Of a stretch of DNA of 64,000 nucleotides, positions 14,514 through 22,804 are shown piece after piece. Within the stretch, counting starts at the first letter, position 1; every line of letters starts with the position of its first letter. A program made the translations under genes and the position numbers. The DNA is from Methylococcales bacterium (lineage in GTDB: Bacteria; Pseudomonadota; Gammaproteobacteria; Methylococcales; Methylomonadaceae), in the NCBI GenBank assembly GCA_965247565.1, contig CBDFHF010000003.1, positions 196,447 through 260,446 on the forward strand, read 5' to 3'. The notes beneath the pieces are model-generated. The model did no database searches. It saw only the letters and a program-made list of their open reading frames with translations, and had not been told where the DNA came from.

Positions 14514-16601
14514 ATGGCAAAAGAACCCAAAACAGAACCCCTGGAAAAACAACTCTGGAAAGCCGCCGATAAGCTGCGCAAAAACATTGATGCCGCAGAA
14601 TATAAACACATCGTGTTAGGTTTGATTTTTCTCAAATACATTTCAGACTCGTTTGAACAGCACTTCGCCACGTTACAGGCAGGCGAAGGCGAATATGCAG
14701 GCGCCGATCCGGAAGATAAAGATGAATATGCGGCAGAAAACGTGTTCTTTGTGCCGCAAGATGCACGTTGGAGTTATTTGCAATCTAATGCGCGCCAACC
14801 AGACATTGGCAAAATAGCGGATGCAGCAATGGATGCGATTGAAGCAGAAAATGCCTCACTTAAAGGTGTACTCCCCAAAGTATTTGCCCGCGACAATTTA
14901 GACCCCGCAAGCTTAGGTCAGCTCATTGATTTAGTCGGCAATATCGCGCTAGGTGATGCCAAATCGCGCAGCGCCGATGTGCTAGGACATGTATTTGAAT
15001 ACTTCCTCGGTGAGTTTGCTTTGGCCGAAGGCAAACAAGGTGGGCAGTTCTATACGCCGCGCTCAGTGGTGGAGTTGTTGGTCGAGATGCTTGAGCCTTA
15101 CCAAGGCCGTGTCTTCGACCCATGCTGTGGCTCTGGCGGTATGTTTGTGCAATCTGAAAAGTTTGTGGCAGACCACCAAGGCCGTGTGAATGATATTTCG
15201 ATTTACGGGCAAGAGAGCAACCAAACCACATGGCGCTTGGCGAAGATGAACCTTGCCATTCGCGGTATTGAAGCCTCACAGGTCAAATGGAACAACGAAG
15301 GCAGCTTTTTAAACGACGCGCATAAAGATGTAAAAGCCGATTACATCATTGCCAACCCGCCATTCAATGTAAGTGATTGGTCGGGCGAACTACTGCGCAC
15401 CGATGGCCGCTGGCAATATGGCGTACCGCCCGCAGGCAATGCCAACTTTGCATGGCTGCAACACTTTATCTATCACCTTTCCCCCACAGGTCAAGCAGGC
15501 GTGGTGCTGGCTAAAGGCGCACTCACCAGTAAAACCAGTGGGGAGGGAGACATCCGCAAAGCGCTGATTGAGCAAGGCAACGTCATTGATTGCATCGTTA
15601 ACCTGCCAGCCAAGTTATTCCTCAATACGCAAATCCCCGCCGCCTTGTGGTTTATGCGCCGCAACAGAAATACTCCCTCGCCCTTTAAGGGAGAGGGCGG
15701 GGGTGAGGGTAAAAAGCAACAAGCCTTCGCCGACCGCAGTAACGAGATTTTGTTTATTGATGCCCGCAACCTAGGCCACCTCATCAATCGCCGCACCAAA
15801 GAGCTGAGCCATGAGGACATTAAACAAATCACTGACACCTACCATGCTTGGCGCAATGCACCATCACCCCTAGCCCCTCTCCCAAAGGGCGAAGGGAATC
15901 CCCCAGAACCCTCTCCCTCTGGGAGAGGGCAGGGTGAGGGAAGCAGTGAGGGCAATAAACTACCAGAGAAACTGCTTGAAAACGCACGAAAATTACGAAA
16001 AAATCAAACCGATGCTGAAGCTCTACTTTGGAGTTTGTTGCGCAGCCGTCAGCTTAATGATTGTAAATTTCGCCGTCAGCACCCTGTAGAGCCTTATATT
16101 CTCGACTTTTACTGCCATGAAGAAAAGCTAGCGATTGAATTGGATGGCGGACAACACAATACAGAATCTGCCATTGCTAATGACCATAAAAGAACCGAGT
16201 ATCTAAAATCACAAGGTATTACCGTATTACGGTTTTGGAATAATGACGTATTGCAAAATACCGAATCTGTGTTGCAGCAAATATATAGCACCCTCACCCC
16301 AGCCCTCTCCCAAAGGGAGAGGGAGTCAAAAGCAGAACCCTCGCCCTTTGGGAGAGGGCTGGGTGAGGGGAAAGCCTACCAAGACATCCCCGGCTTCTGC
16401 GCATCCGTCAGCCTAGAGCGCGTCAAAGAACTCGATTACGTGCTCACCCCAGGCCGTTATGTTGGCCTACCCGATGATGAAGATGACTTTAACTTTGCCG
16501 AGCGCTTTAACGCCCTAAAAGCAGAATTTGAAGCGCAGTTGGTGGAGGAAGATAAACTGAATAAAGCCATTGCAGAGAACTTGGCGAGGGTGAAGTTGTG
16601 A
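14514..16601 (+). CDS. hsdM: Type I restriction-modification DNA methyltransferase subunit HsdM carrying two in-frame insertions (a solo palindromic repeat, and a DUF559 domain flanked by palindromic repeats)
   Basis: HsdM_N region, N6-adenine MTase motif 'IIANPPFN', typical C-terminal 'LTPGRYVG...' segment; 695 aa versus ~520-540 aa for typical HsdM. The extra residues map to GC-rich repeats and a DUF559 block. Confidence 0.85.
15674..15709. repeat. Solo GC-rich palindromic repeat inside hsdM, translated in frame as '[12 protein letters not shown]'
   Basis: 'tccctcgccctttaagggagagggcgggggtgaggg' is an imperfect inverted repeat. It shares the unit GGGAGAGGGC(N)GGGTGAGGG with the repeats at 15860-15952 and 16282-16362. 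Confidence 0.7.
15859..16372 (+). mobile_element. In-frame insertion in hsdM: DUF559 (Vsr-like PD-(D/E)xK endonuclease) domain (~15957-16293) bracketed by GC-rich palindromic repeat modules (15860-15952 and 16282-16362)
   Basis: DUF559 consensus '[24 protein letters not shown]...[30 protein letters not shown]...[10 protein letters not shown]'. Flanks are nested inverted repeats ('ccctcaccccagccctctcccaaagggagaggg ... ccctcgccctttgggagagggctgggtgagggg') encoding PSP-GRG-GEG peptides. HsdM sequence resumes normally after the insert. Confidence 0.8.
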
Positions 16602-17779: not shown

Positions 17780-17790
17780 TCAAAAAGCTC

Positions 17791-17873
17791 GTAGGTTGGG
17801 CTGAAGAATGAAGCCCAACAAATGTTGCAACATACGCTAAACGTTGGGCTTCCAAAAGTCAGCCCAACCTACA
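17791..17873. repeat. REP/BIME-like palindromic units upstream of the RAYT gene
   Basis: 'gtagg-GTTGGGCT-gaagaatga-AGCCCAAC' and 'GTTGGGCT-tccaaaagtc-AGCCCAAC-ctac': two hairpins sharing the same 8-bp stem, bounded by gtagg/cctac. Confidence 0.7.
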
Positions 17874-17895
17874 AGATGATGAAATTTGGGGGGTA

Positions 17896-18429
17896 ATGGT
17901 TTTGCGTTATCGACGAGCGGATGTGGCAGGCGGCACTTATTTTTTTACGGTGAATTTGGCGGATAGAAAAGTCGATTTGTTAACACGCCATCTTGATGAT
18001 TTGCGCGAGGTGATTAACAAGGTTAAACAGGCGCATCCTTTTGTGATTGAGGCGATGGTGGTGTTGCCCGAACATTTGCATGCGATTTGGCGTTTGCCGC
18101 ACGATGATGTGGATTTTCCTATGCGGTGGAGTTTGATTAAGGCAGGGTTTTCGCGCCGTATGGATAAAACTGAACCTATACGCGCCAGCCGCCAAGCAAA
18201 ACGTGAGCGTGGTATTTGGCAACGCCGCTATTGGGAGCACATCATCAGAGATGAAAACGATTTTGAGCGGCATGTGGATTATATTCATTACAACCCTGTG
18301 AAACATGGGCATGTGCAACGTGTGATTGATTGGCCGTTTTCGACATTTCACCACTATGTGGAGCGAGGGTTTCTGCCATCGGATTGGGGAGATGGCGAGG
18401 TAGATATTTTGACGGGCAGTGAAAGGTAA
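17896..18429 (+). CDS. REP-associated tyrosine transposase (RAYT / TnpA_REP, IS200/IS605 Y1 family)
   Basis: HuH motif 'PEHLHAIW' and catalytic Tyr region 'YIHYNPVKHG'; 177 aa; flanked on both sides by inverted REP units. Confidence 0.85.
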   Translation: MVLRYRRADVAGGTYFFTVNLADRKVDLLTRHLDDLREVINKVKQAHPFVIEAMVVLPEHLHAIWRLPHDDVDFPMRWSLIKAGFSRRMDKTEPIRASRQAKRERGIWQRRYWEHIIRDENDFERHVDYIHYNPVKHGHVQRVIDWPFSTFHHYVERGFLPSDWGDGEVDILTGSER

Positions 18430-18442
18430 TATGTTTGTTCTG

Positions 18443-18519
18443 TAGGTTGGGTAGAGGCACCAAGCTCAACGGATTGATACGGTAAATGTGGGGCTTCCTT
18501 ACGTCAGACCAACCTACGG
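18443..18519. repeat. REP/BIME-like palindromic units downstream of the RAYT gene (degenerate copies of the upstream units)
   Basis: 'gtaggttgggtagagg...' and 'gtggggcttccttacgtcagaccaacctacgg', bounded by gtagg/cctac as on the other side. Confidence 0.65.
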
Positions 18520-18572
18520 ACTAACAGTAATAATGTAGCCTGATCATTAACTGAAACAAAAATAAATCTGAG

Positions 18573-19565
18573 ATGATGGATACCACTAAACAGCAGATTG
18601 TCATTTATCAAACTGAAGATGGTAAAGCGCAAATAGACGTGCAGCTTGAGCAAGAAACTGTGTGGTTGAGCCAAGCACAAATGGTTGACCTTTTTGATAG
18701 AAACAAACGTACTATTTCAGAGCATATTGGCAATATTTTTAAAGAGGGTGAGTTGCTAGAAAATTCAGTTGTCCGGAAATCCCGGACAACTGCTAGTGAC
18801 GGCAAAACATATGAGGTGACTGAATATAACCTAGATGTCGTGATATCAGTAGGTTATCGGGTTAAGTCTCAACGTGGTACGCAGTTTCGCATCTGGGCCA
18901 ATAACGTACTTAAACAGTACTTGGTGCAAGGCTATGCATTAAATGAACGCAAACTCCAAGCTGAGCAAGAAAAGCTGGATGATTTAAAGCGTACGATCGC
19001 TTTGTCATCTCGCCTACTACAAAACCAAGCATTAACACTGCAAGAATCACAATCCATATTGTTGGTGCTTGAAAAATACAGCCACGCACTCACTGTGCTG
19101 GATGATTACGACCATCAACGTTTGATGGTGGTTGGTACCAAGGCGGTGACTCGGCCCAAAATTGATTACCATGAAGCCATGGCGCAAATTCACTTATGGC
19201 GCGAGAAAGAAAAGCTTGGCGGCTTATTTGGTAACGAGAAAGATAATTCGTTTGCAAGTGCGTTAGAAACCATCTATCAAACCTTTGATGGACAAGAGCT
19301 TTACCCGAGCATAGAAGAAAAAGCCGCCAATCTGCTATATTTTATTGTTAAGAACCATGCGTTTAGCGATGGCAATAAGCGGATTGCCGCAGCGATATTT
19401 GTGTGGTTTTTAGAGCGCAATGATCACTTGTATAACGAGCTAGGCGAAAAACGCATTGCAGACAATGCGTTAGTGGCGTTTACCTTACTCATCGCAGAGA
19501 GCAAGCCTGATGAACGTGAGATGATTGTAAAAGTCATCATTAACTTAATTAACGGCAATAACTAA
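18573..19565 (+). CDS. RhuM-family N-terminal domain fused to a Fic/Doc (death-on-curing) domain
   Basis: N-terminus 'IVIYQTEDGKAQIDVQLEQETVWLSQAQMVDLF...ISEHIGNIFKEGEL...NLDVVISVGYRVKSQRGTQFRIWA' (RhuM signature); C-terminal Fic/Doc motif 'HAFSDGNKRIAAA' (HxFx(D/E)GNKR). Confidence 0.8.
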   Translation: MMDTTKQQIVIYQTEDGKAQIDVQLEQETVWLSQAQMVDLFDRNKRTISEHIGNIFKEGELLENSVVRKSRTTASDGKTYEVTEYNLDVVISVGYRVKSQRGTQFRIWANNVLKQYLVQGYALNERKLQAEQEKLDDLKRTIALSSRLLQNQALTLQESQSILLVLEKYSHALTVLDDYDHQRLMVVGTKAVTRPKIDYHEAMAQIHLWREKEKLGGLFGNEKDNSFASALETIYQTFDGQELYPSIEEKAANLLYFIVKNHAFSDGNKRIAAAIFVWFLERNDHLYNELGEKRIADNALVAFTLLIAESKPDEREMIVKVIINLINGNN

Positions 19566-22500
19566 TGGCTAAACTCACAGAATCCGAAATCGAAACCCTA
19601 GCCATTGAGCGTTTGCAAGCGCTTGGGTTTGATTATGTATATGCGCCTGAGATTGCGCCTGATTCTGCTAACCCTGAGCGTGAGAGCTTTGCCGACGTGT
19701 TATTGCTTGGCCGGTTGCGCAAGGCGGTTGCCCGCATTAACTCTGCCCTGCCCGCTGCCGCTTTAGATGAAGCCATCAAAACCATTCAACGGATTAGCTC
19801 ACCCGAGTTGTTAGCCAATAATGAAGCCTTTCACCGTTTGCTGACTGAAGGTGTGAATGTCAGCTATCAGAAAGACGGCAATACCCGTGGTGATTTGGTT
19901 TGGCTGATTGACTTCAACCATGTTGATAATAACGAGTTTATAGTGGCGAATCAGTTCACCATTATTGAAAACAACCAGAACAAGCGACCTGATTTGATTC
20001 TGTTTGTGAACGGCTTGCCGTTGGTGGTGATTGAGCTAAAAAACGCAGTTGATGAAAACGCGACGATTAAATCGGCGTATCAGCAAATCAACACCTATAA
20101 AGCCAGCATCCCCAGTTTGTTTACCTATAACGGCTTTGTGGTGTTATCTGATGGACATGAAGCGAAAGTGGGCAGTATTTCGGCGGGGTATACTCGCTTT
20201 ATGGCCTGGAAAACAGCGGATGGTAAAAGTGAAGCTTCTCGTCTAGTTCCGCAATTAGAAACGCTGATTGACGGCATGTTAAATAAAACCACGCTGATCG
20301 ATTTAATCCGCCATTTTATTGTGTTTGAAAAATCTTCTAAAGAAGACCCTAGCACCAAACAGATTAGCATTAGCACGGTTAAAAAGTTGGCGGCTTATCA
20401 CCAATATTATGCAGTGAATGCGGCGGTCATCTCTACGTTAAGAGCCAGTGCAGAAGTCAGTAGTGTCGCTCAAGCCCCGGCCAGTTATGGTTTGAGTGAT
20501 GTGCGCAGCCAACCTAAAGGCGATCGCAAAGCCGGTGTAGTCTGGCATACCCAAGGCAGTGGTAAATCGCTCAGCATGGTGTTTTATACCGGCAAGATTG
20601 TGTTGGCGTTGGATAATCCCACCATTGTAGTGATTACGGACCGTAACGACTTGGATGATCAATTGTTTGATACTTTTGCCGCTTCCAGCCAACTGTTACG
20701 CCAAGAACCTAAGCAGGTAGAAGATCGGCAGCATCTTAAAAAGTTGTTAAAAGTGGGCTCAGGTGGGGTAATTTTCACCACCATCCAGAAATTTCAACCT
20801 GAGGAAGGTAATGTTTATGAAACTTTATCTGAACGCCAGAATATTGTGGTGATTGCTGATGAAGCCCACCGCACCCAATATGGCTTTAAGGCAAAAACGG
20901 TAGACGATAAAAACGCAGCAGGTGAAGTGATCGGGCAAAAAATTGTCTATGGATTTGCTAAGTACATGCGTGATGCCCTGCCCAATGCCACTTACTTGGG
21001 CTTTACCGGCACACCCATTGAAAGCACTGATGTCAACACGCCTGCAGTGTTTGGTAATTATGTAGATATATATGATATTGCCCAAGCGGTTGAAGATGGT
21101 GCGACAGTACGAATTTATTACGAAAGCCGACTAGCAAAAGTTAACCTGAGCGACGCAGGCAAACAGCTGATTGCTGAATTGGATGAGGAACTGGAGCTTG
21201 AAACTCAGGATGTCGCCTCTCAACCGAAAGATGCCGAAAAAGCCAAAGCCCGCTGGACGCAGGTAGAAGCGTTGATCGGTAGTGAGAAACGTGTGCAAAA
21301 CATTGCACAAGATATAGTGAACCACTTTATGCGGCGCCAGGAAGTCTTTGCTGGAAAAGGCATGGTTGTGAGCATGTCGCGCCGCATTGCTGCCGCGCTG
21401 TACGATGAAATGATCAAGCTAAAGCCCGATTGGCATTCGGATGATTTGAGTCGTGGCACAATTAAGGTGGTGATGACAGCAGCATCAAGCGATGGCCCAC
21501 AACTGATGAAGCATCATACTACCAAGCAACAGCGCCGTACTCTGGCTGAGCGCATGAAAGACCCACAAGACGAACTAAAATTGGTCATTGTGCGAGATAT
21601 GTGGCTGACGGGTTTTGATGCGCCCAGCATGCACACGCTTTATATTGATAAACCCATGCAAGGCCATAATCTGATGCAAGCCATTGCACGCGTAAACCGG
21701 GTTTATGGTGATAAACCGGCAGGATTGGTGGTGGATTATTTAGGTATTGCGGCGGATTTAAAAAAGGCCTTGTCATTTTATTCCGACGCAGGCGGTAAAG
21801 GCGACCCCGCTGAAGCGCAAGAACAAGCGGTCGCTTTGATGCTGGAAAAACTGGAAGTAGTCTCGAATATGTACCACGGCTTTGCCTATGAAAACTACTT
21901 TGAAGCGGATACGTCTAAAAAACTCTCGCTCATTTTGGCGGCTGAAGAACATATCTTGGGCCTGCAAGATGGCAAAAAGCGTTACCTGAATGAAGTGGCG
22001 GCGTTATCACTGGCTTTTGCTATTGCCATCCCGCATGAACAAGCTATGGACGTGAAGGATGAAGTGGCTTTTTTTCAGGCTGTGAAAGCGCGCTTGGCCA
22101 AATTTGACAGCGTTGGCAATGAAAACTCTGATGTGGAAATCGAAACCACCATTCGGCAGGTGATTGACCAAGCTCTGATTTCAGAACAAGTCATTGACGT
22201 GTTTGATGCGGCAGGCATTAAAAAACCGGATATTTCCATTTTAAGCGATGAGTTTTTGCAAGAACTAAAAAATCATGAACATAAAAATATCGCGCTGGAA
22301 GTACTGAAAAAACTGTTAAATGATGAGTTGAGAGTTCGTACTAAAAAAAATCTGGTGCAAAGCCGAAGTTTGATGGAAATGCTGGAAAATGCCATCAAAA
22401 AATATCAAAACAAAATACTGACCGCCGCTGAAATAATGGATGAGCTGATCCGCATCAGTAAAGAAATGGTCGCGTCTGATAACGAAGCCCGAAATATGGG

Positions 22501-22804
22501 CTTGAGTGAATTTGAATATGCGTTTTATACCGCTGTAGCCAATAACGATAGCGCAAAACAGCTCATGCAACATGAGCAACTACGGGCATTGGCTGTGGTA
22601 CTTACCCAAAAAGTGCGCGAAAACGCCACGATTGACTGGACAATTAAGGAAAGTGTAAAAGCTAAATTGAAAGTCATTGTTAAACGCACTTTGCGCCAGT
22701 TCGGTTATCCACCCGATATGCAGTTACTGGCCACTGAAACGGTCCTTAAGCAAGCAGAACTGATTGCCAATGAATTGATCCAACCTACCCGTTCGCTCAG
22801 TTAA
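19565..22804 (+). CDS. hsdR: Type I restriction enzyme R subunit HsdR (SF2 helicase/endonuclease)
   Basis: 1079 aa; N-terminal PD-(D/E)xK nuclease region; helicase motifs (Walker A 'TQGSGKS', DEAH box 'VIADEAHRTQYG'); C-terminal helical domain; ATG overlaps the upstream stop (TAATG). Confidence 0.9.
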   Translation: MAKLTESEIETLAIERLQALGFDYVYAPEIAPDSANPERESFADVLLLGRLRKAVARINSALPAAALDEAIKTIQRISSPELLANNEAFHRLLTEGVNVSYQKDGNTRGDLVWLIDFNHVDNNEFIVANQFTIIENNQNKRPDLILFVNGLPLVVIELKNAVDENATIKSAYQQINTYKASIPSLFTYNGFVVLSDGHEAKVGSISAGYTRFMAWKTADGKSEASRLVPQLETLIDGMLNKTTLIDLIRHFIVFEKSSKEDPSTKQISISTVKKLAAYHQYYAVNAAVISTLRASAEVSSVAQAPASYGLSDVRSQPKGDRKAGVVWHTQGSGKSLSMVFYTGKIVLALDNPTIVVITDRNDLDDQLFDTFAASSQLLRQEPKQVEDRQHLKKLLKVGSGGVIFTTIQKFQPEEGNVYETLSERQNIVVIADEAHRTQYGFKAKTVDDKNAAGEVIGQKIVYGFAKYMRDALPNATYLGFTGTPIESTDVNTPAVFGNYVDIYDIAQAVEDGATVRIYYESRLAKVNLSDAGKQLIAELDEELELETQDVASQPKDAEKAKARWTQVEALIGSEKRVQNIAQDIVNHFMRRQEVFAGKGMVVSMSRRIAAALYDEMIKLKPDWHSDDLSRGTIKVVMTAASSDGPQLMKHHTTKQQRRTLAERMKDPQDELKLVIVRDMWLTGFDAPSMHTLYIDKPMQGHNLMQAIARVNRVYGDKPAGLVVDYLGIAADLKKALSFYSDAGGKGDPAEAQEQAVALMLEKLEVVSNMYHGFAYENYFEADTSKKLSLILAAEEHILGLQDGKKRYLNEVAALSLAFAIAIPHEQAMDVKDEVAFFQAVKARLAKFDSVGNENSDVEIETTIRQVIDQALISEQVIDVFDAAGIKKPDISILSDEFLQELKNHEHKNIALEVLKKLLNDELRVRTKKNLVQSRSLMEMLENAIKKYQNKILTAAEIMDELIRISKEMVASDNEARNMGLSEFEYAFYTAVANNDSAKQLMQHEQLRALAVVLTQKVRENATIDWTIKESVKAKLKVIVKRTLRQFGYPPDMQLLATETVLKQAELIANELIQPTRSLS

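Follow-up and report, generated by a model that had tools for sequence, protein, structure and literature searches.

The DNA analysed here is a 64-kb stretch (the window) carrying a type I restriction-modification (R-M) system that, judged from its genes, looks complete. Within hsdM lies a short palindromic repeat unit on its own, and further units follow downstream in the same gene. The genes and the solo unit are as follows:

14514..16601, + strand: hsdM, 695 aa, reading frame intact
15675..15709, + strand: solo BoxC/PIT/TMECO unit in hsdM, 35 nt, recognised from the published consensus, the hairpin fold and pLDDT
16598..17779, + strand: hsdS, in the same operon as hsdM
17896-18429: RAYT-like gene flanked by its own GTAGGTTGGGC repeats (GTAG-type REPs), distinct from the unit
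19565..22804, + strand: hsdR, 1079 aa, all domains present

Pfam matches on the whole HsdM comprised HsdM_N, N6_Mtase and DUF559/MTES_1575, with two weaker overlapping matches to methyltransferase domains (MTS and MmeI_Mtase), and included no Hint/intein domain. The neighbouring RAYT was considered as the spreader of the unit and ruled out, as its REPs differ and the unit carries no GTAG.

The solo unit and its repeat family

The solo unit consists of a C-block CCCTCGCCC, a loop TTTAA, a G-block GGGAGAGGG, a loop CGG and a second G-block GGGTGAGGG. It begins at codon phase 0 of hsdM and encodes HsdM residues 388-399 (12 residues) between LWFMRRN and ILFIDAR, the in-frame placement given in the initial annotation; the 36-mer quoted there for 15674-15709 is present exactly as given, the repeat proper being the 35 nt at 15675-15709. 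By sequence, the unit certainly belongs to the BoxC/PIT/TMECO family, an intrastrand-triplex motif long known from the work of Bachellier et al. in the 1990s, Hoyne/Maher 2000 and Holder et al. (NAR 2015, PMC4666352), the family itself being nothing new. It fits exactly the published consensus 5'-CCCTCNCCC N3-6 GGGNGAGGG N3 GGGNGAGGG-3' (C-block, loop, G-block, loop, G-block), with a first loop of 5 nt and a second of 3 nt, and E. coli TMECO no. 10 is nearly identical to it.

A scan of the window with the consensus CCCTCNCCC-N3-6-GGGNGAGGG-N1-3-GGGNGAGGG returned four exact matches, all within hsdM, at 15675, 15909, 16291(-) and 16338, against 0 in 100 dinucleotide-preserving shuffles, which ruled out a chance match of the solo unit. 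The solo and downstream copies are members of one family, as had been proposed, with 152 bp between the solo copy and the start of the next unit. Counting a degenerate copy, the window holds five units, 5/5 of them in frame within hsdM; they do not follow the habit described for E. coli, where the family is said to be always intergenic and without mobile-element link, partner protein or spreading route, although its definition by sequence does not include an intergenic location. Across genomes the family is widely dispersed, a unit scan having found at least 120 loci in many bacterial phyla and the 2015 survey having counted 3610 copies in 262 genomes (PMC4666352). Within the window no unit lies outside hsdM; the density seen in E. 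coli would predict no more than ~0.3 copies in a stretch of this size. Rfam gave only sub-threshold chance matches to microRNA-like hairpins, and nothing for the solo copy.

In a Watson-Crick fold prediction, the solo unit forms a hairpin of -10.3 kcal/mol (z -3.0); for E. coli copies, a single strand has been shown in vitro to fold into an intrastrand purine-motif triplex. At the protein level, residues 388-403 have pLDDT <50 in an AF2 model of HsdM of moderate confidence (mean pLDDT 64), and lie between strands 376-382 and 411-416. The unit-encoded peptide is accordingly predicted by this model to be a disordered, Pro/Gly-rich loop of a beta-hairpin in the methyltransferase domain, tolerated by the enzyme. 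The unit is conserved at the level of DNA: 8/8 alleles use CCC for both of its prolines, compared with an invariant third base in 0/17 conserved Pro codons of the backbone, and the differences between unit alleles lie at N positions and in loops.

Two loop hotspots and the DUF559 cassette in hsdM

The units occupy two loops of HsdM, the second of which also contains a DUF559 domain:

15645..15767, + strand: hotspot loop 1 of hsdM (LWFM...EILFIDAR), 123 nt long as compared with 78 nt when empty
15840..16397, + strand: hotspot loop 2 of hsdM (YHAWRN...YQDIPGF), 558 nt long as compared with 51 nt when empty, with the DUF559 cassette inside
15861..15895, - strand: unit a, degenerate and inverted, outer left of the left doublet, 12 residues
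15909..15940, + strand: unit b, inner left, 11 residues, direct repeat of unit d
15954..16295, + strand: DUF559 domain (a Vsr-like endonuclease of the PD-(D/E)XK type), lying in frame inside HsdM
16291..16323, - strand: unit c, inner right, 12 residues on the opposite strand
16338..16369, + strand: unit d, outer right, 11 residues

The solo unit is an insertion, because alleles without it exist. These empty alleles, the comparison called for in the initial annotation, have a shorter loop 1 of 26 residues, and the loop is likewise short in the solved homologue 3khk; ancestral HsdM sequence was ruled out as the source of the unit, since neither the empty alleles nor 3khk have the insert. The claim that the insertions are multiples of three is correct for the net gain of loop 1 over empty alleles (45 nt, or 15 codons), but not for the unit itself, which has 35 nt. 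No target-site duplication is visible at the solo unit when filled and empty alleles are compared. The same solo copy was found at the identical position in four alleles (L083, L209, L211 and L212) whose backbones share ~83% DNA identity (~17% diverged), so the copy is inherited rather than recent, and its insertion did not take place in this genome.

By rough regex classes placed on a tree with recombination ignored, loop 1 was empty in 54 of 121 alleles and contained a unit in 37, DUF559 in 20 and other repeats in 10; the 20 carry whole DUF559 cassettes in this loop. Loops 1 and 2 vary independently, with alleles filled at either, both or neither (24/121 are empty at both), which bears out the earlier view of two independent insertions. 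On these allele comparisons, the two loops, each with conserved flanks, are hotspots of this hsdM lineage filled and emptied dozens of times, a feature that appears new. It is plausible that units in coding regions survive only if they preserve the frame; the homologue sets consist of predicted full-length proteins, so that broken copies would go unseen. A metagenome scan with HsdM recovered mostly distant alleles (65-85%), and a plasmid collection only empty hsdM alleles of ~72% identity, on Acinetobacter plasmids. Loop 1 also shows variants, such as four tandem hairpins in L213, an extra fourth block in L211 and the loss of the third block in P0008/P0011. Unrelated REP-like repeat families without DUF559 occupy both loops as well, and the loops may therefore simply gather any small hairpin repeat. 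The loop-1 variant present in the window has a TTTAA loop, and none of its close relatives was seen to carry DUF559.

The arrangement in loop 2 is doublet-DUF559-doublet, the downstream units forming two inverted doublets (a/b and c/d) around the DUF559 domain. Inverted doublets are a habit of the family, and the hsdM copies also share with it the consensus, the conserved blocks with variable loops and the local indel variation; they differ in lying in frame, at recurrent loop hotspots and around a DUF559 nuclease, and in the second loop of units b and d, which has 2 nt instead of 3 nt. In unit b, this shorter loop avoids an in-frame TGA. Units c and d pair almost perfectly into one long hairpin (-39.6 kcal/mol, z -10.7). 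The bracketing of an in-frame DUF559 domain by these four hsdM units appears new, and the nuclease, overlooked in the initial annotation, is the best lead to mobility.

The DUF559 domain matches Pfam PF04480 with E=4e-40 over profile positions 2-108 of 109 and PDB 3hrl at 1e-25, keeps 10/10 family-invariant residues in an intact nuclease ORF, and folds separately in the AF2 model with pLDDT 70-88. The cassette of the window shares 92-98% DNA identity with that of L001, against ~84% for the hsdM backbone; by this measure of divergence, the cassette is younger than its host hsdM. In the loop-2 solo allele of L213, the left flank equals the cassette junction of L001 and the right flank equals that of the window, the two being joined inside the unit. 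Since its flanks are the left and right cassette junctions, the lone unit represents the vacant form of the cassette site, and sequence comparison thus shows cassette and solo states to be allelic, with breakpoints within units. The vacant allele resembles solo LTRs and excision footprints in joining two occupied-allele junctions within one repeat copy, whereas the repeats here are palindromic and of 32-35 bp, and the event may be an integration or an excision.

An "addiction" idea, in which hsdM inserts would be protected since methylase loss is lethal, was dropped. In type I systems, hsdM-null mutants also lose restriction, and the argument fails for this reason.

DUF559 genes and repeat units beyond hsdM

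The association of DUF559 with units extends well beyond this gene. Unit-derived peptides lie at the ends of 43/120 free-standing DUF559 proteins, while neither the cores of these proteins nor 44,400 control residues contain any. Unit-containing loci totalling 875 kb include four DUF559 genes, each directly beside a unit (4/4). Inverted units flank DUF559 at three other loci (L096, L126 and L205) and at E. coli ycjD, while DUF559 domains nested in HsdS, methylases, aminoacyl-tRNA synthetases, NadE and PriA have the same doublet on both sides. Beside another DUF559 subfamily lies a different motif, of C5/G5 type, with the same C-G-G block architecture. As an independent hint, genes that have long inverted repeats on their flanks are enriched for DUF559 (odds ratio 14). 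From these surveys, DUF559 genes in general are flanked by such units, an association that appears new: in the literature searched on DUF559, ycjD, BoxC/PIT and TMECO, no publication connected DUF559 with these repeats, and that on DUF559 reported no biochemical activity on them. The expected tracer peptide was also recovered, a PSPxGxGxGEG-type sequence marking in-frame copies in IleRS, LigA, an Eco57I-like methylase, YgiQ and PriA. Short DUF559 ORFs were seen annotated as "type I restriction enzyme M protein".

Viewed from the repeats, only ~3% of the units sampled across genomes adjoin DUF559. The median number of unit-like places in E. coli is 18 in ycjD-positive and 3 in ycjD-negative genomes, a roughly six-fold difference that is confounded by phylogroup. 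Genomes of E. coli negative for ycjD still hold units (~12 in O157, up to ~12-16 overall). A vacant ycjD site was sought in E. coli Nissle, but unrelated genes without a unit have taken the place of the region, which hence says nothing for or against such a site.

Origin of the units and their significance

With slightly better than even confidence, we regard the solo copy as a landing site or footprint of the DUF559 cassette, the units being the cassette's ends or attachment sequences. They would then delimit a small selfish cassette encoding a Vsr-like DUF559 endonuclease, and the loop-1 unit would be a vacant cassette site: a landing pad, or else the footprint of a nuclease gene lost through recombination of the direct units on its two sides. 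From the sequence patterns, we infer a spread of units driven by the nuclease, which would cut at or near a unit or doublet; repair would copy the cassette in, with units and conserved host flanks as homology, in a homing-like manner, and genes under selection would keep only in-frame, stop-free products. Gain and loss of the unit are left unpolarised, and its first arrival at a unit-free site lies outside the reach of the proposal. More broadly, and with confidence that falls a little short of even, the BoxC/PIT/TMECO repeats may be the cis-acting ends or targets of a widespread selfish system of DUF559 (YcjD-type, Vsr-like). In such a system, the gene would sit between inverted or duplicated units and invade genes in frame without intron or intein (mostly R-M methylase and specificity genes, and also aminoacyl-tRNA synthetases, PriA and NadE), the domain being kept through repeat-encoded linkers and its loss leaving the solo units that make up the dispersed family.

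These proposals can be set beside known systems. Vsr-like nucleases are an established family of homing endonucleases, and the Vsr-like (EDxHD) homing endonucleases, such as I-Bth0305I, belong to the same superfamily cluster as Vsr/DUF559. Like homing endonucleases and inteins, the cassette shows presence/absence polymorphism at a fixed position of conserved genes and is more similar between alleles than its host gene, and the host range of DUF559 nesting (aminoacyl-tRNA synthetases, PriA, LigA, methylases) recalls that of inteins. However, it has no intron or intein, the nuclease staying as an inserted domain with repeat-encoded disordered linkers, and its flanks are a dispersed repeat instead of unique host sequence. 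The REP/REPIN and RAYT systems share a short GC-rich hairpin repeat that is present, solo or in doublets, in many copies for each nuclease gene, a protein gene flanked by inverted repeats or doublets, and an E. coli copy number that follows gene presence; in contrast, the unit lacks the GTAG head, its partner is a PD-(D/E)XK Vsr-like nuclease instead of a Y1 (HUH) transposase, and REP/RAYT systems are not characterised by nesting inside genes in frame. RPE and other in-frame repeats (Ogata 2000; Delihas 2011, PMC3184786) also place a palindromic repeat in frame at a tolerated surface position, adding a peptide, but RPE belong to another sequence family, measure 100-150 bp against 35 bp for the unit and are confined to one genus, whereas the unit family is pan-bacterial and tied to a nuclease-encoding cassette.

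A rather unlikely alternative is that the unit is a non-autonomous REP- or MITE-like element spread by another trans-acting enzyme or a host process, with DUF559 landing or being retained beside repeats and the loop-1 copy an independent insertion of the repeat alone, as in the initial annotation. It would account for the many units that are solo and far from any DUF559, for those retained in ycjD-negative E. coli and for the other repeat families that share the loops without DUF559, and REPs are known insertion targets of some IS elements. Nevertheless, BoxC has no known transposase partner after 30 years, the comparison of filled and empty alleles revealed neither target-site duplication nor terminal inverted repeats, and the REPs of the operon's RAYT are of a different type. 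The co-variation of DUF559 subfamilies with their flanking motifs points to specific recognition, although targeted landing fits it too. The earlier suggestion that the unit is mobile on its own is likewise backed by nothing observed: as well as lacking REP features, the unit differs from a MITE in being a single 35-bp C-G-G block array without target-site duplication.

The loop-1 copy could also have arisen with no mobility of the element at all, through structure-driven local events such as replication slippage, template switching or ectopic gene conversion with the loop-2 units or further copies as donors, and published work does tie these triplex motifs to local indels, partial deletions and genomic instability, in keeping with the tandem or nested loop-1 variants of L213, L211 and P0008/P0011. 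Such an origin is nonetheless improbable, given that loop-1 units occur where loop 2 is empty or filled by an unrelated repeat (P0016), that loop-1 and loop-2 units differ in loop sequence and length, and that the presence of the family in unrelated genes and phyla would be left unexplained. A benefit to the host seems more improbable still, whether as a flexible linker of HsdM, as a DNA or RNA structure tuning hsdM-hsdS expression or as a recombination or inversion hotspot by which the R-M system is diversified or switched. The blocks are conserved at synonymous sites, the inverted units around DUF559 resemble inversion substrates, predicted inversion targets are enriched for DUF559 and methylase genes, and mosaicism of hsdM alleles is evident. 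Yet many alleles that look functional have no insert at all (24/121 being empty at both loops) and the solved structure 3khk does without it, published in vivo tests of these elements showed no promoter, terminator or polymerase-blocking activity, and the peptide is predicted to be disordered, with loop residues that vary freely.

The reading of the units as ends of a DUF559 cassette matters for both partners. BoxC/PIT/TMECO is among the most conserved short bacterial repeats, without known origin, mobility mechanism or partner protein, and DUF559, with 13,612 cluster representatives at E<=1e-10, forms a very large family without known function; if true, the link would give each a testable role. 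In the hsdM lineage, empty, solo-unit and cassette alleles occur naturally at two defined loops, and E. coli offers a tractable pair in ycjD and its 23 units. A practical consequence of the inserts is that annotations of R-M genes become inflated and fragmented and that family profiles are contaminated. If the proposal is correct, it would describe gene invasion by a nuclease carried in frame in host proteins without protein or RNA splicing.

A known palindromic repeat within hsdM

A direct sequence check confirmed the 36-mer quoted in the initial annotation at 15674-15709, of which the repeat proper takes up 35 nt (15675-15709: CCCTCGCCC TTTAA GGGAGAGGG CGG GGGTGAGGG). It lies in an ORF that Pfam assigns to the type I restriction-modification (R-M) methylases, with HsdM_N followed by N6_Mtase in two pieces, and whose top matches come from Methylotenera and other Methylophilaceae. 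This solo (+) unit begins at codon base 1 and codes for 12 residues (388-399); 152 bp further on follow (-)a and (+)b, the DUF559 domain, and (-)c and (+)d.

Features of the hsdM operon in the window
14514-16601, + strand, hsdM ORF (695 aa)
15675-15709, + strand, solo unit in loop 1 (LWFM to EILFIDAR)
15861-15895, - strand, unit a, a fifth, degenerate copy, in loop 2 (YHAWRN to YQDIPGF)
15909-15940, + strand, unit b
15954-16295, + strand, DUF559 domain, HsdM residues 481-594, complete and in frame within N6_Mtase (Pfam residues 486-594, E=4e-40)
16291-16323, - strand, unit c
16338-16369, + strand, unit d
17896-18429, RAYT-like Y1 transposase gene (PF01797), between hsdS and the rhuM/fic gene (region 17780-18530)

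Four sites in the 64-kb window (G+C 44%) fit the pattern CCCTCNCCC-N3-6-GGGNGAGGG-N1-3-GGGNGAGGG exactly, compared with none in 100 dinucleotide-preserving shuffles. Unit blocks in any combination were absent from the window outside hsdM, which holds all five copies. A long hairpin is possible for each doublet, or close inverted pair (-39.6 kcal/mol, z = -10.7 for c/d), and a 10-bp hairpin is predicted for the solo unit (z = -3.0). Downstream in the operon are hsdS, the RAYT-like gene, the rhuM/fic gene and an intact hsdR (1079 aa). An inverted GTAG-type REP pair stands on each side of the RAYT gene (GTAGGTTGGGC... at 17791 and 18442, reverse complements at 17863 and 18508), forming with it a second small selfish element in this R-M operon, unrelated to the unit and DUF559.

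A full-text literature search with its 9-mers identified the unit family, named successively BoxC, PIT (potential intrastrand triplex) element and TMECO, with the consensus 5'-CCCTCNCCC N3-6 GGGNGAGGG N3 GGGNGAGGG-3' (Holder et al. 2015, PMC4666352); Rfam contains no corresponding family. The solo copy is nearly identical to E. coli copy no. 10 (CCCTCGCCCTTTCAGGGAGAGGGCCGGGGTGAGGGT). The published survey counted 3610 copies in 262 proteobacterial genomes and 23 in MG1655, always intergenic and including five inverted doublets, and showed triplex formation in vitro by the single strand, and it makes no mention of in-frame copies or of DUF559 (PMC4666352). The initial interpretation holds in assigning the copies to one family, in treating the two in-frame sites as varying independently and in offering a tracer peptide, which is useful, but overlooked that the family is known: the solo copy is an ordinary member in an unusual coding position.

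In a scan of one genome per species, the unit was found at 120 loci or more, the matches listed including Planctomycetota, Chloroflexota, Pseudomonas, Enterobacteriaceae, Acinetobacter, many Alphaproteobacteria, Verrucomicrobia, Cyanobacteria, Nitrospirae and others. Several bona fide genes contain in-frame units (IleRS, NAD-dependent ligase, a YgiQ radical-SAM protein, and an Eco57I-like methylase just before NPPW), and others lie at transketolase and oxidoreductase domain junctions; small repeats fused in frame into genes are already known, such as the Rickettsia RPEs. Units or cassettes (DUF559 with its flanking units) also stand exactly at joins of usually separate proteins or subunits, namely Mo-oxidoreductase with cytochrome c (L146:129-4043), the N and C halves of transketolase (L167:3720-5267), and EPSP synthase with NUDIX (P0377), and such repeats may fuse neighbouring genes into one reading frame.

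Most often the unit is free of stops in 5/6 frames. Where the loops are 3 nt long, its PSP frame reads GGG TGA GGG, and a 2-nt second loop, a minority form (19/151 units in a genome sample), is present in all the sense-frame hsdM copies (b, d, loop 1 of L001, loop 2 of L213); the solo copy, which has a 5-nt first loop, is free of stops even with the canonical 3-nt second loop. Because the homologue sets consist of predicted proteins, we only infer that in-frame copies alone survive, and short DUF559 ORFs annotated as 'type I restriction enzyme M protein' could represent disrupted genes.

Two variable loops and the cassette site

Alignment of 120 close HsdM homologues showed that the segment from LWFM.R to EILFIDAR (loop 1) may be short (26 residues), or hold one unit (a 23-residue form or PSPAGGRGAGGEG), tandem or nested units, or a whole DUF559 domain bracketed by unit peptides, the left one PSPQPSPSGRG. 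The segment YH.WRN ... Y.DI.GF (loop 2) takes the same range of forms, and additionally carries unrelated small repeat families as in-frame peptides (LPRHCEEQSDAAIQ, VIPAKAGIQ, RHSVLDTESS, CIRP...RAHAMRPY). Further in-frame peptides of well-known small repeat families in the two loops (P0001-P0120) are ADLRVSP..KGTHIG and FPSSGGVPEGRGG, the latter in loop 1 of L008 and loop 2 of L022.

States of the two hsdM loops in 121 alleles (rough regex classes)
Loop 1: empty 54; unit 37; DUF559 20; other repeat 10
Loop 2: empty 40; unit 22; DUF559 21; other repeat 38

Both loops are empty in only 24/121 alleles, and at least 29 state changes in loop 1 and at least 39 in loop 2 are needed on a neighbour-joining backbone tree, with regex classes and recombination ignored. 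DUF559 occupies loop 1 in 20 alleles, loop 2 in 21 and both in 0/121, with ~3.5 expected under independence, a possible sign of incompatibility or self-exclusion. In the solved homologue 3khk, the loops at these two positions are short. In the AlphaFold2 model (mean pLDDT 64), the solo-unit peptide is a low-confidence loop (388-403) between strands 376-382 and 411-416, and DUF559 is a separately folded domain (pLDDT 70-88) on low-confidence tethers corresponding to units a/b and c/d.

A DNA comparison of filled with empty alleles gave a net gain of 45 nt in loop 1 and no visible target-site duplication at the insert. A loop-1 unit identical in kind and position is found in L083, L209, L211 and L212, which share only ~74-91% hsdM backbone identity with the window, and therefore the copy predates the source genome. 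Substitutions within this unit are confined to N positions and loops, and both its Pro codons are CCC in 8/8 alleles, compared with an invariant third base in 0/17 conserved backbone Pro codons; judged from these alleles, the unit DNA is either sequence-constrained or homogenised again and again. Other loop-1 variants include four tandem ~45-nt hairpin-plus-spacer modules (APSPTRGEGMLNAA...), the last ending in a full unit (P0018, L213:3001-4764), an extra fourth G-block (L211), and loss of the third block (P0008/P0011).

In loop 2 of the closest allele, L001 (Methylotenera MAG), the order is (+)unit-DUF559-(-)unit, and the cassette DNA is 92-98% identical to that of the window against a backbone average of ~84%. 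Loop 2 of L213 holds a solo unit, whose left flank CAAC CCTACAGAA equals the L001 left junction and whose right flank AAAAGCC TACCAAGAC differs by one base from the window right junction, GAAAGCC TACCAAGAC. Units b and d of the window, each after CAGAA, are direct repeats enclosing DUF559 and unit c. Solo and cassette alleles are related by an indel with its ends inside units, which makes a lone unit a cassette site in its vacant state. The close alleles L001, L086 and L085 and the window share hsdM-hsdS-...-hsdR operons in differing genomic neighbourhoods, with variable genes between hsdS and hsdR (KwaAB, AbiEii, DUF1828, RhuM/Fic, RAYT), and related hsdM genes are present on Acinetobacter plasmids.

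DUF559 and the unit beyond hsdM

Unit-derived peptides were found in the terminal extensions of 43/120 free-standing relatives of the window DUF559, in typical N- and C-terminal versions, and in none of the cores of those relatives nor in 44,400 control residues. In 875 kb of unit-containing loci, all four DUF559 genes abut a unit (4/4). L096, L126 and the copy nested in PriA (L205) have inverted units on both sides. Loop 2 of L003 carries a different DUF559 subfamily with a different flanking motif in the same architecture (left, CCCCC-CAG-CCCCC-TAAA-GGGGG; right, CCCC-TTCA-GGGG-ATTTA-GGGG).

An exhaustive profile-free search gave 13,612 DUF559 cluster representatives at E<=1e-10, and among 145 new best matches 70 were of at least 300 aa with an internal DUF559. 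Hosts among these were HsdS (28) along with Eco57I/MmeI/N6_N4/N6 methylases and type ISP enzymes, all these groups making up >40/70. Of the remaining hosts, four were MetRS and two were other class I synthetases, while NadE, an EPSP synthase-NUDIX fusion and a DBI_PRT-family phosphoribosyltransferase were among those found once. In most sequences inspected, the same doublet brackets the nested domain on both sides, as in one HsdS (LTQTLSQRERASKLPSPSGRGAGGEG - DUF559 - LTQTLSQGERAELPSPSGRGAGGEG) that repeats the window plan (-)(+)-DUF559-(-)(+) exactly; the alignment consensus has PSPxGRGxGGEG ahead of the domain and PSPPxPLPxGEG behind it. The HsdS cassettes read (P0243-P0297 set) follow directly on the conserved central helix (...FKSWFVDFDPV.AK...) and mark a third site of recurrent insertion among type I R-M genes. 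Proteins P0248 and P0241 comprise an Eco57I-like protein of 1214 aa with two separate DUF559 domains, each surrounded by repeat-derived peptide arrays, and a 377-aa protein with three tandem DUF559 stretches. In a survey of programmed inversions, 'DUF559 domain-containing protein' was 14-fold enriched among genes between long inverted repeats; no description of a general DUF559-BoxC association was found in the literature searched.

In E. coli K-12 (L208, NC_000913.3 1351040-1351760), the 3' end of the DUF559 ORF ycjD lies inside a degenerate unit, followed downstream by a 45-nt duplicate of that 3' end and, beyond the duplicate, intact TMECO no. 9. The gene is accessory (3378/5426 complete E. 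coli genomes), and an IS1-split copy exists (H37/H38). In an evenly spaced sample of 60 genomes, counted with a combined ycjD+TMECO query, the median number of unit-like places was 18 in 37 ycjD-positive versus 3 in 23 ycjD-negative genomes (Mann-Whitney p = 1.4e-9, confounded by phylogroup). These counts fit a nuclease propagating or maintaining units, with the same confounding.

A candidate nuclease partner and its alternatives

The initial annotation overlooked the DUF559 nuclease nested 250 bp downstream, which is likely the partner of the unit family. Among PD-(D/E)XK nucleases, DUF559 falls in the Vsr/DUF559/DUF2726 cluster, of which the homing endonuclease I-Bth0305I is also a member, and the window copy keeps 10/10 invariant residues of the family alignment. 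The putative nuclease would recognise the unit or doublet and break the DNA, and repair would copy the cassette from an occupied site, with the units and conserved host flanks as homology. Such breakage and copying would explain the duplicated doublets, a cassette younger than its host gene, and an intein-like preference for conserved genes and motifs as hosts. Recombination between flanking direct units would delete the nuclease gene, leaving a solo unit or doublet.

The main alternative, in which the unit spreads by another route and DUF559 merely targets it, appears possible but distinctly the less favoured. Only ~3% of sampled units adjoin DUF559, and ycjD-negative genomes (~12 unit-like places in O157, 1-3 in many others) show that units persist without ycjD; the published work found no mobile-element link for BoxC/PIT/TMECO (PMC4666352). 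Local slippage or gene conversion is improbable by comparison; the excess of local indel variation reported for the family (PMC4666352) would speak for it, and the presence of units in unrelated genes and phyla against it. A host function is rated slightly lower still, with the codon invariance of the unit for it and the lack of promoter or terminator activity (PMC4666352) against it. The hsdM loops may also collect any small hairpin repeat, because unrelated repeat families fill the same loops.

Under the partnership of unit and nuclease, the loop-1 copy would be a vacant cassette site, left as a footprint or else a landing pad still to be used. The interest of the case lies in its hotspots, in the allelism of cassette and solo unit, and in the general DUF559-BoxC association.
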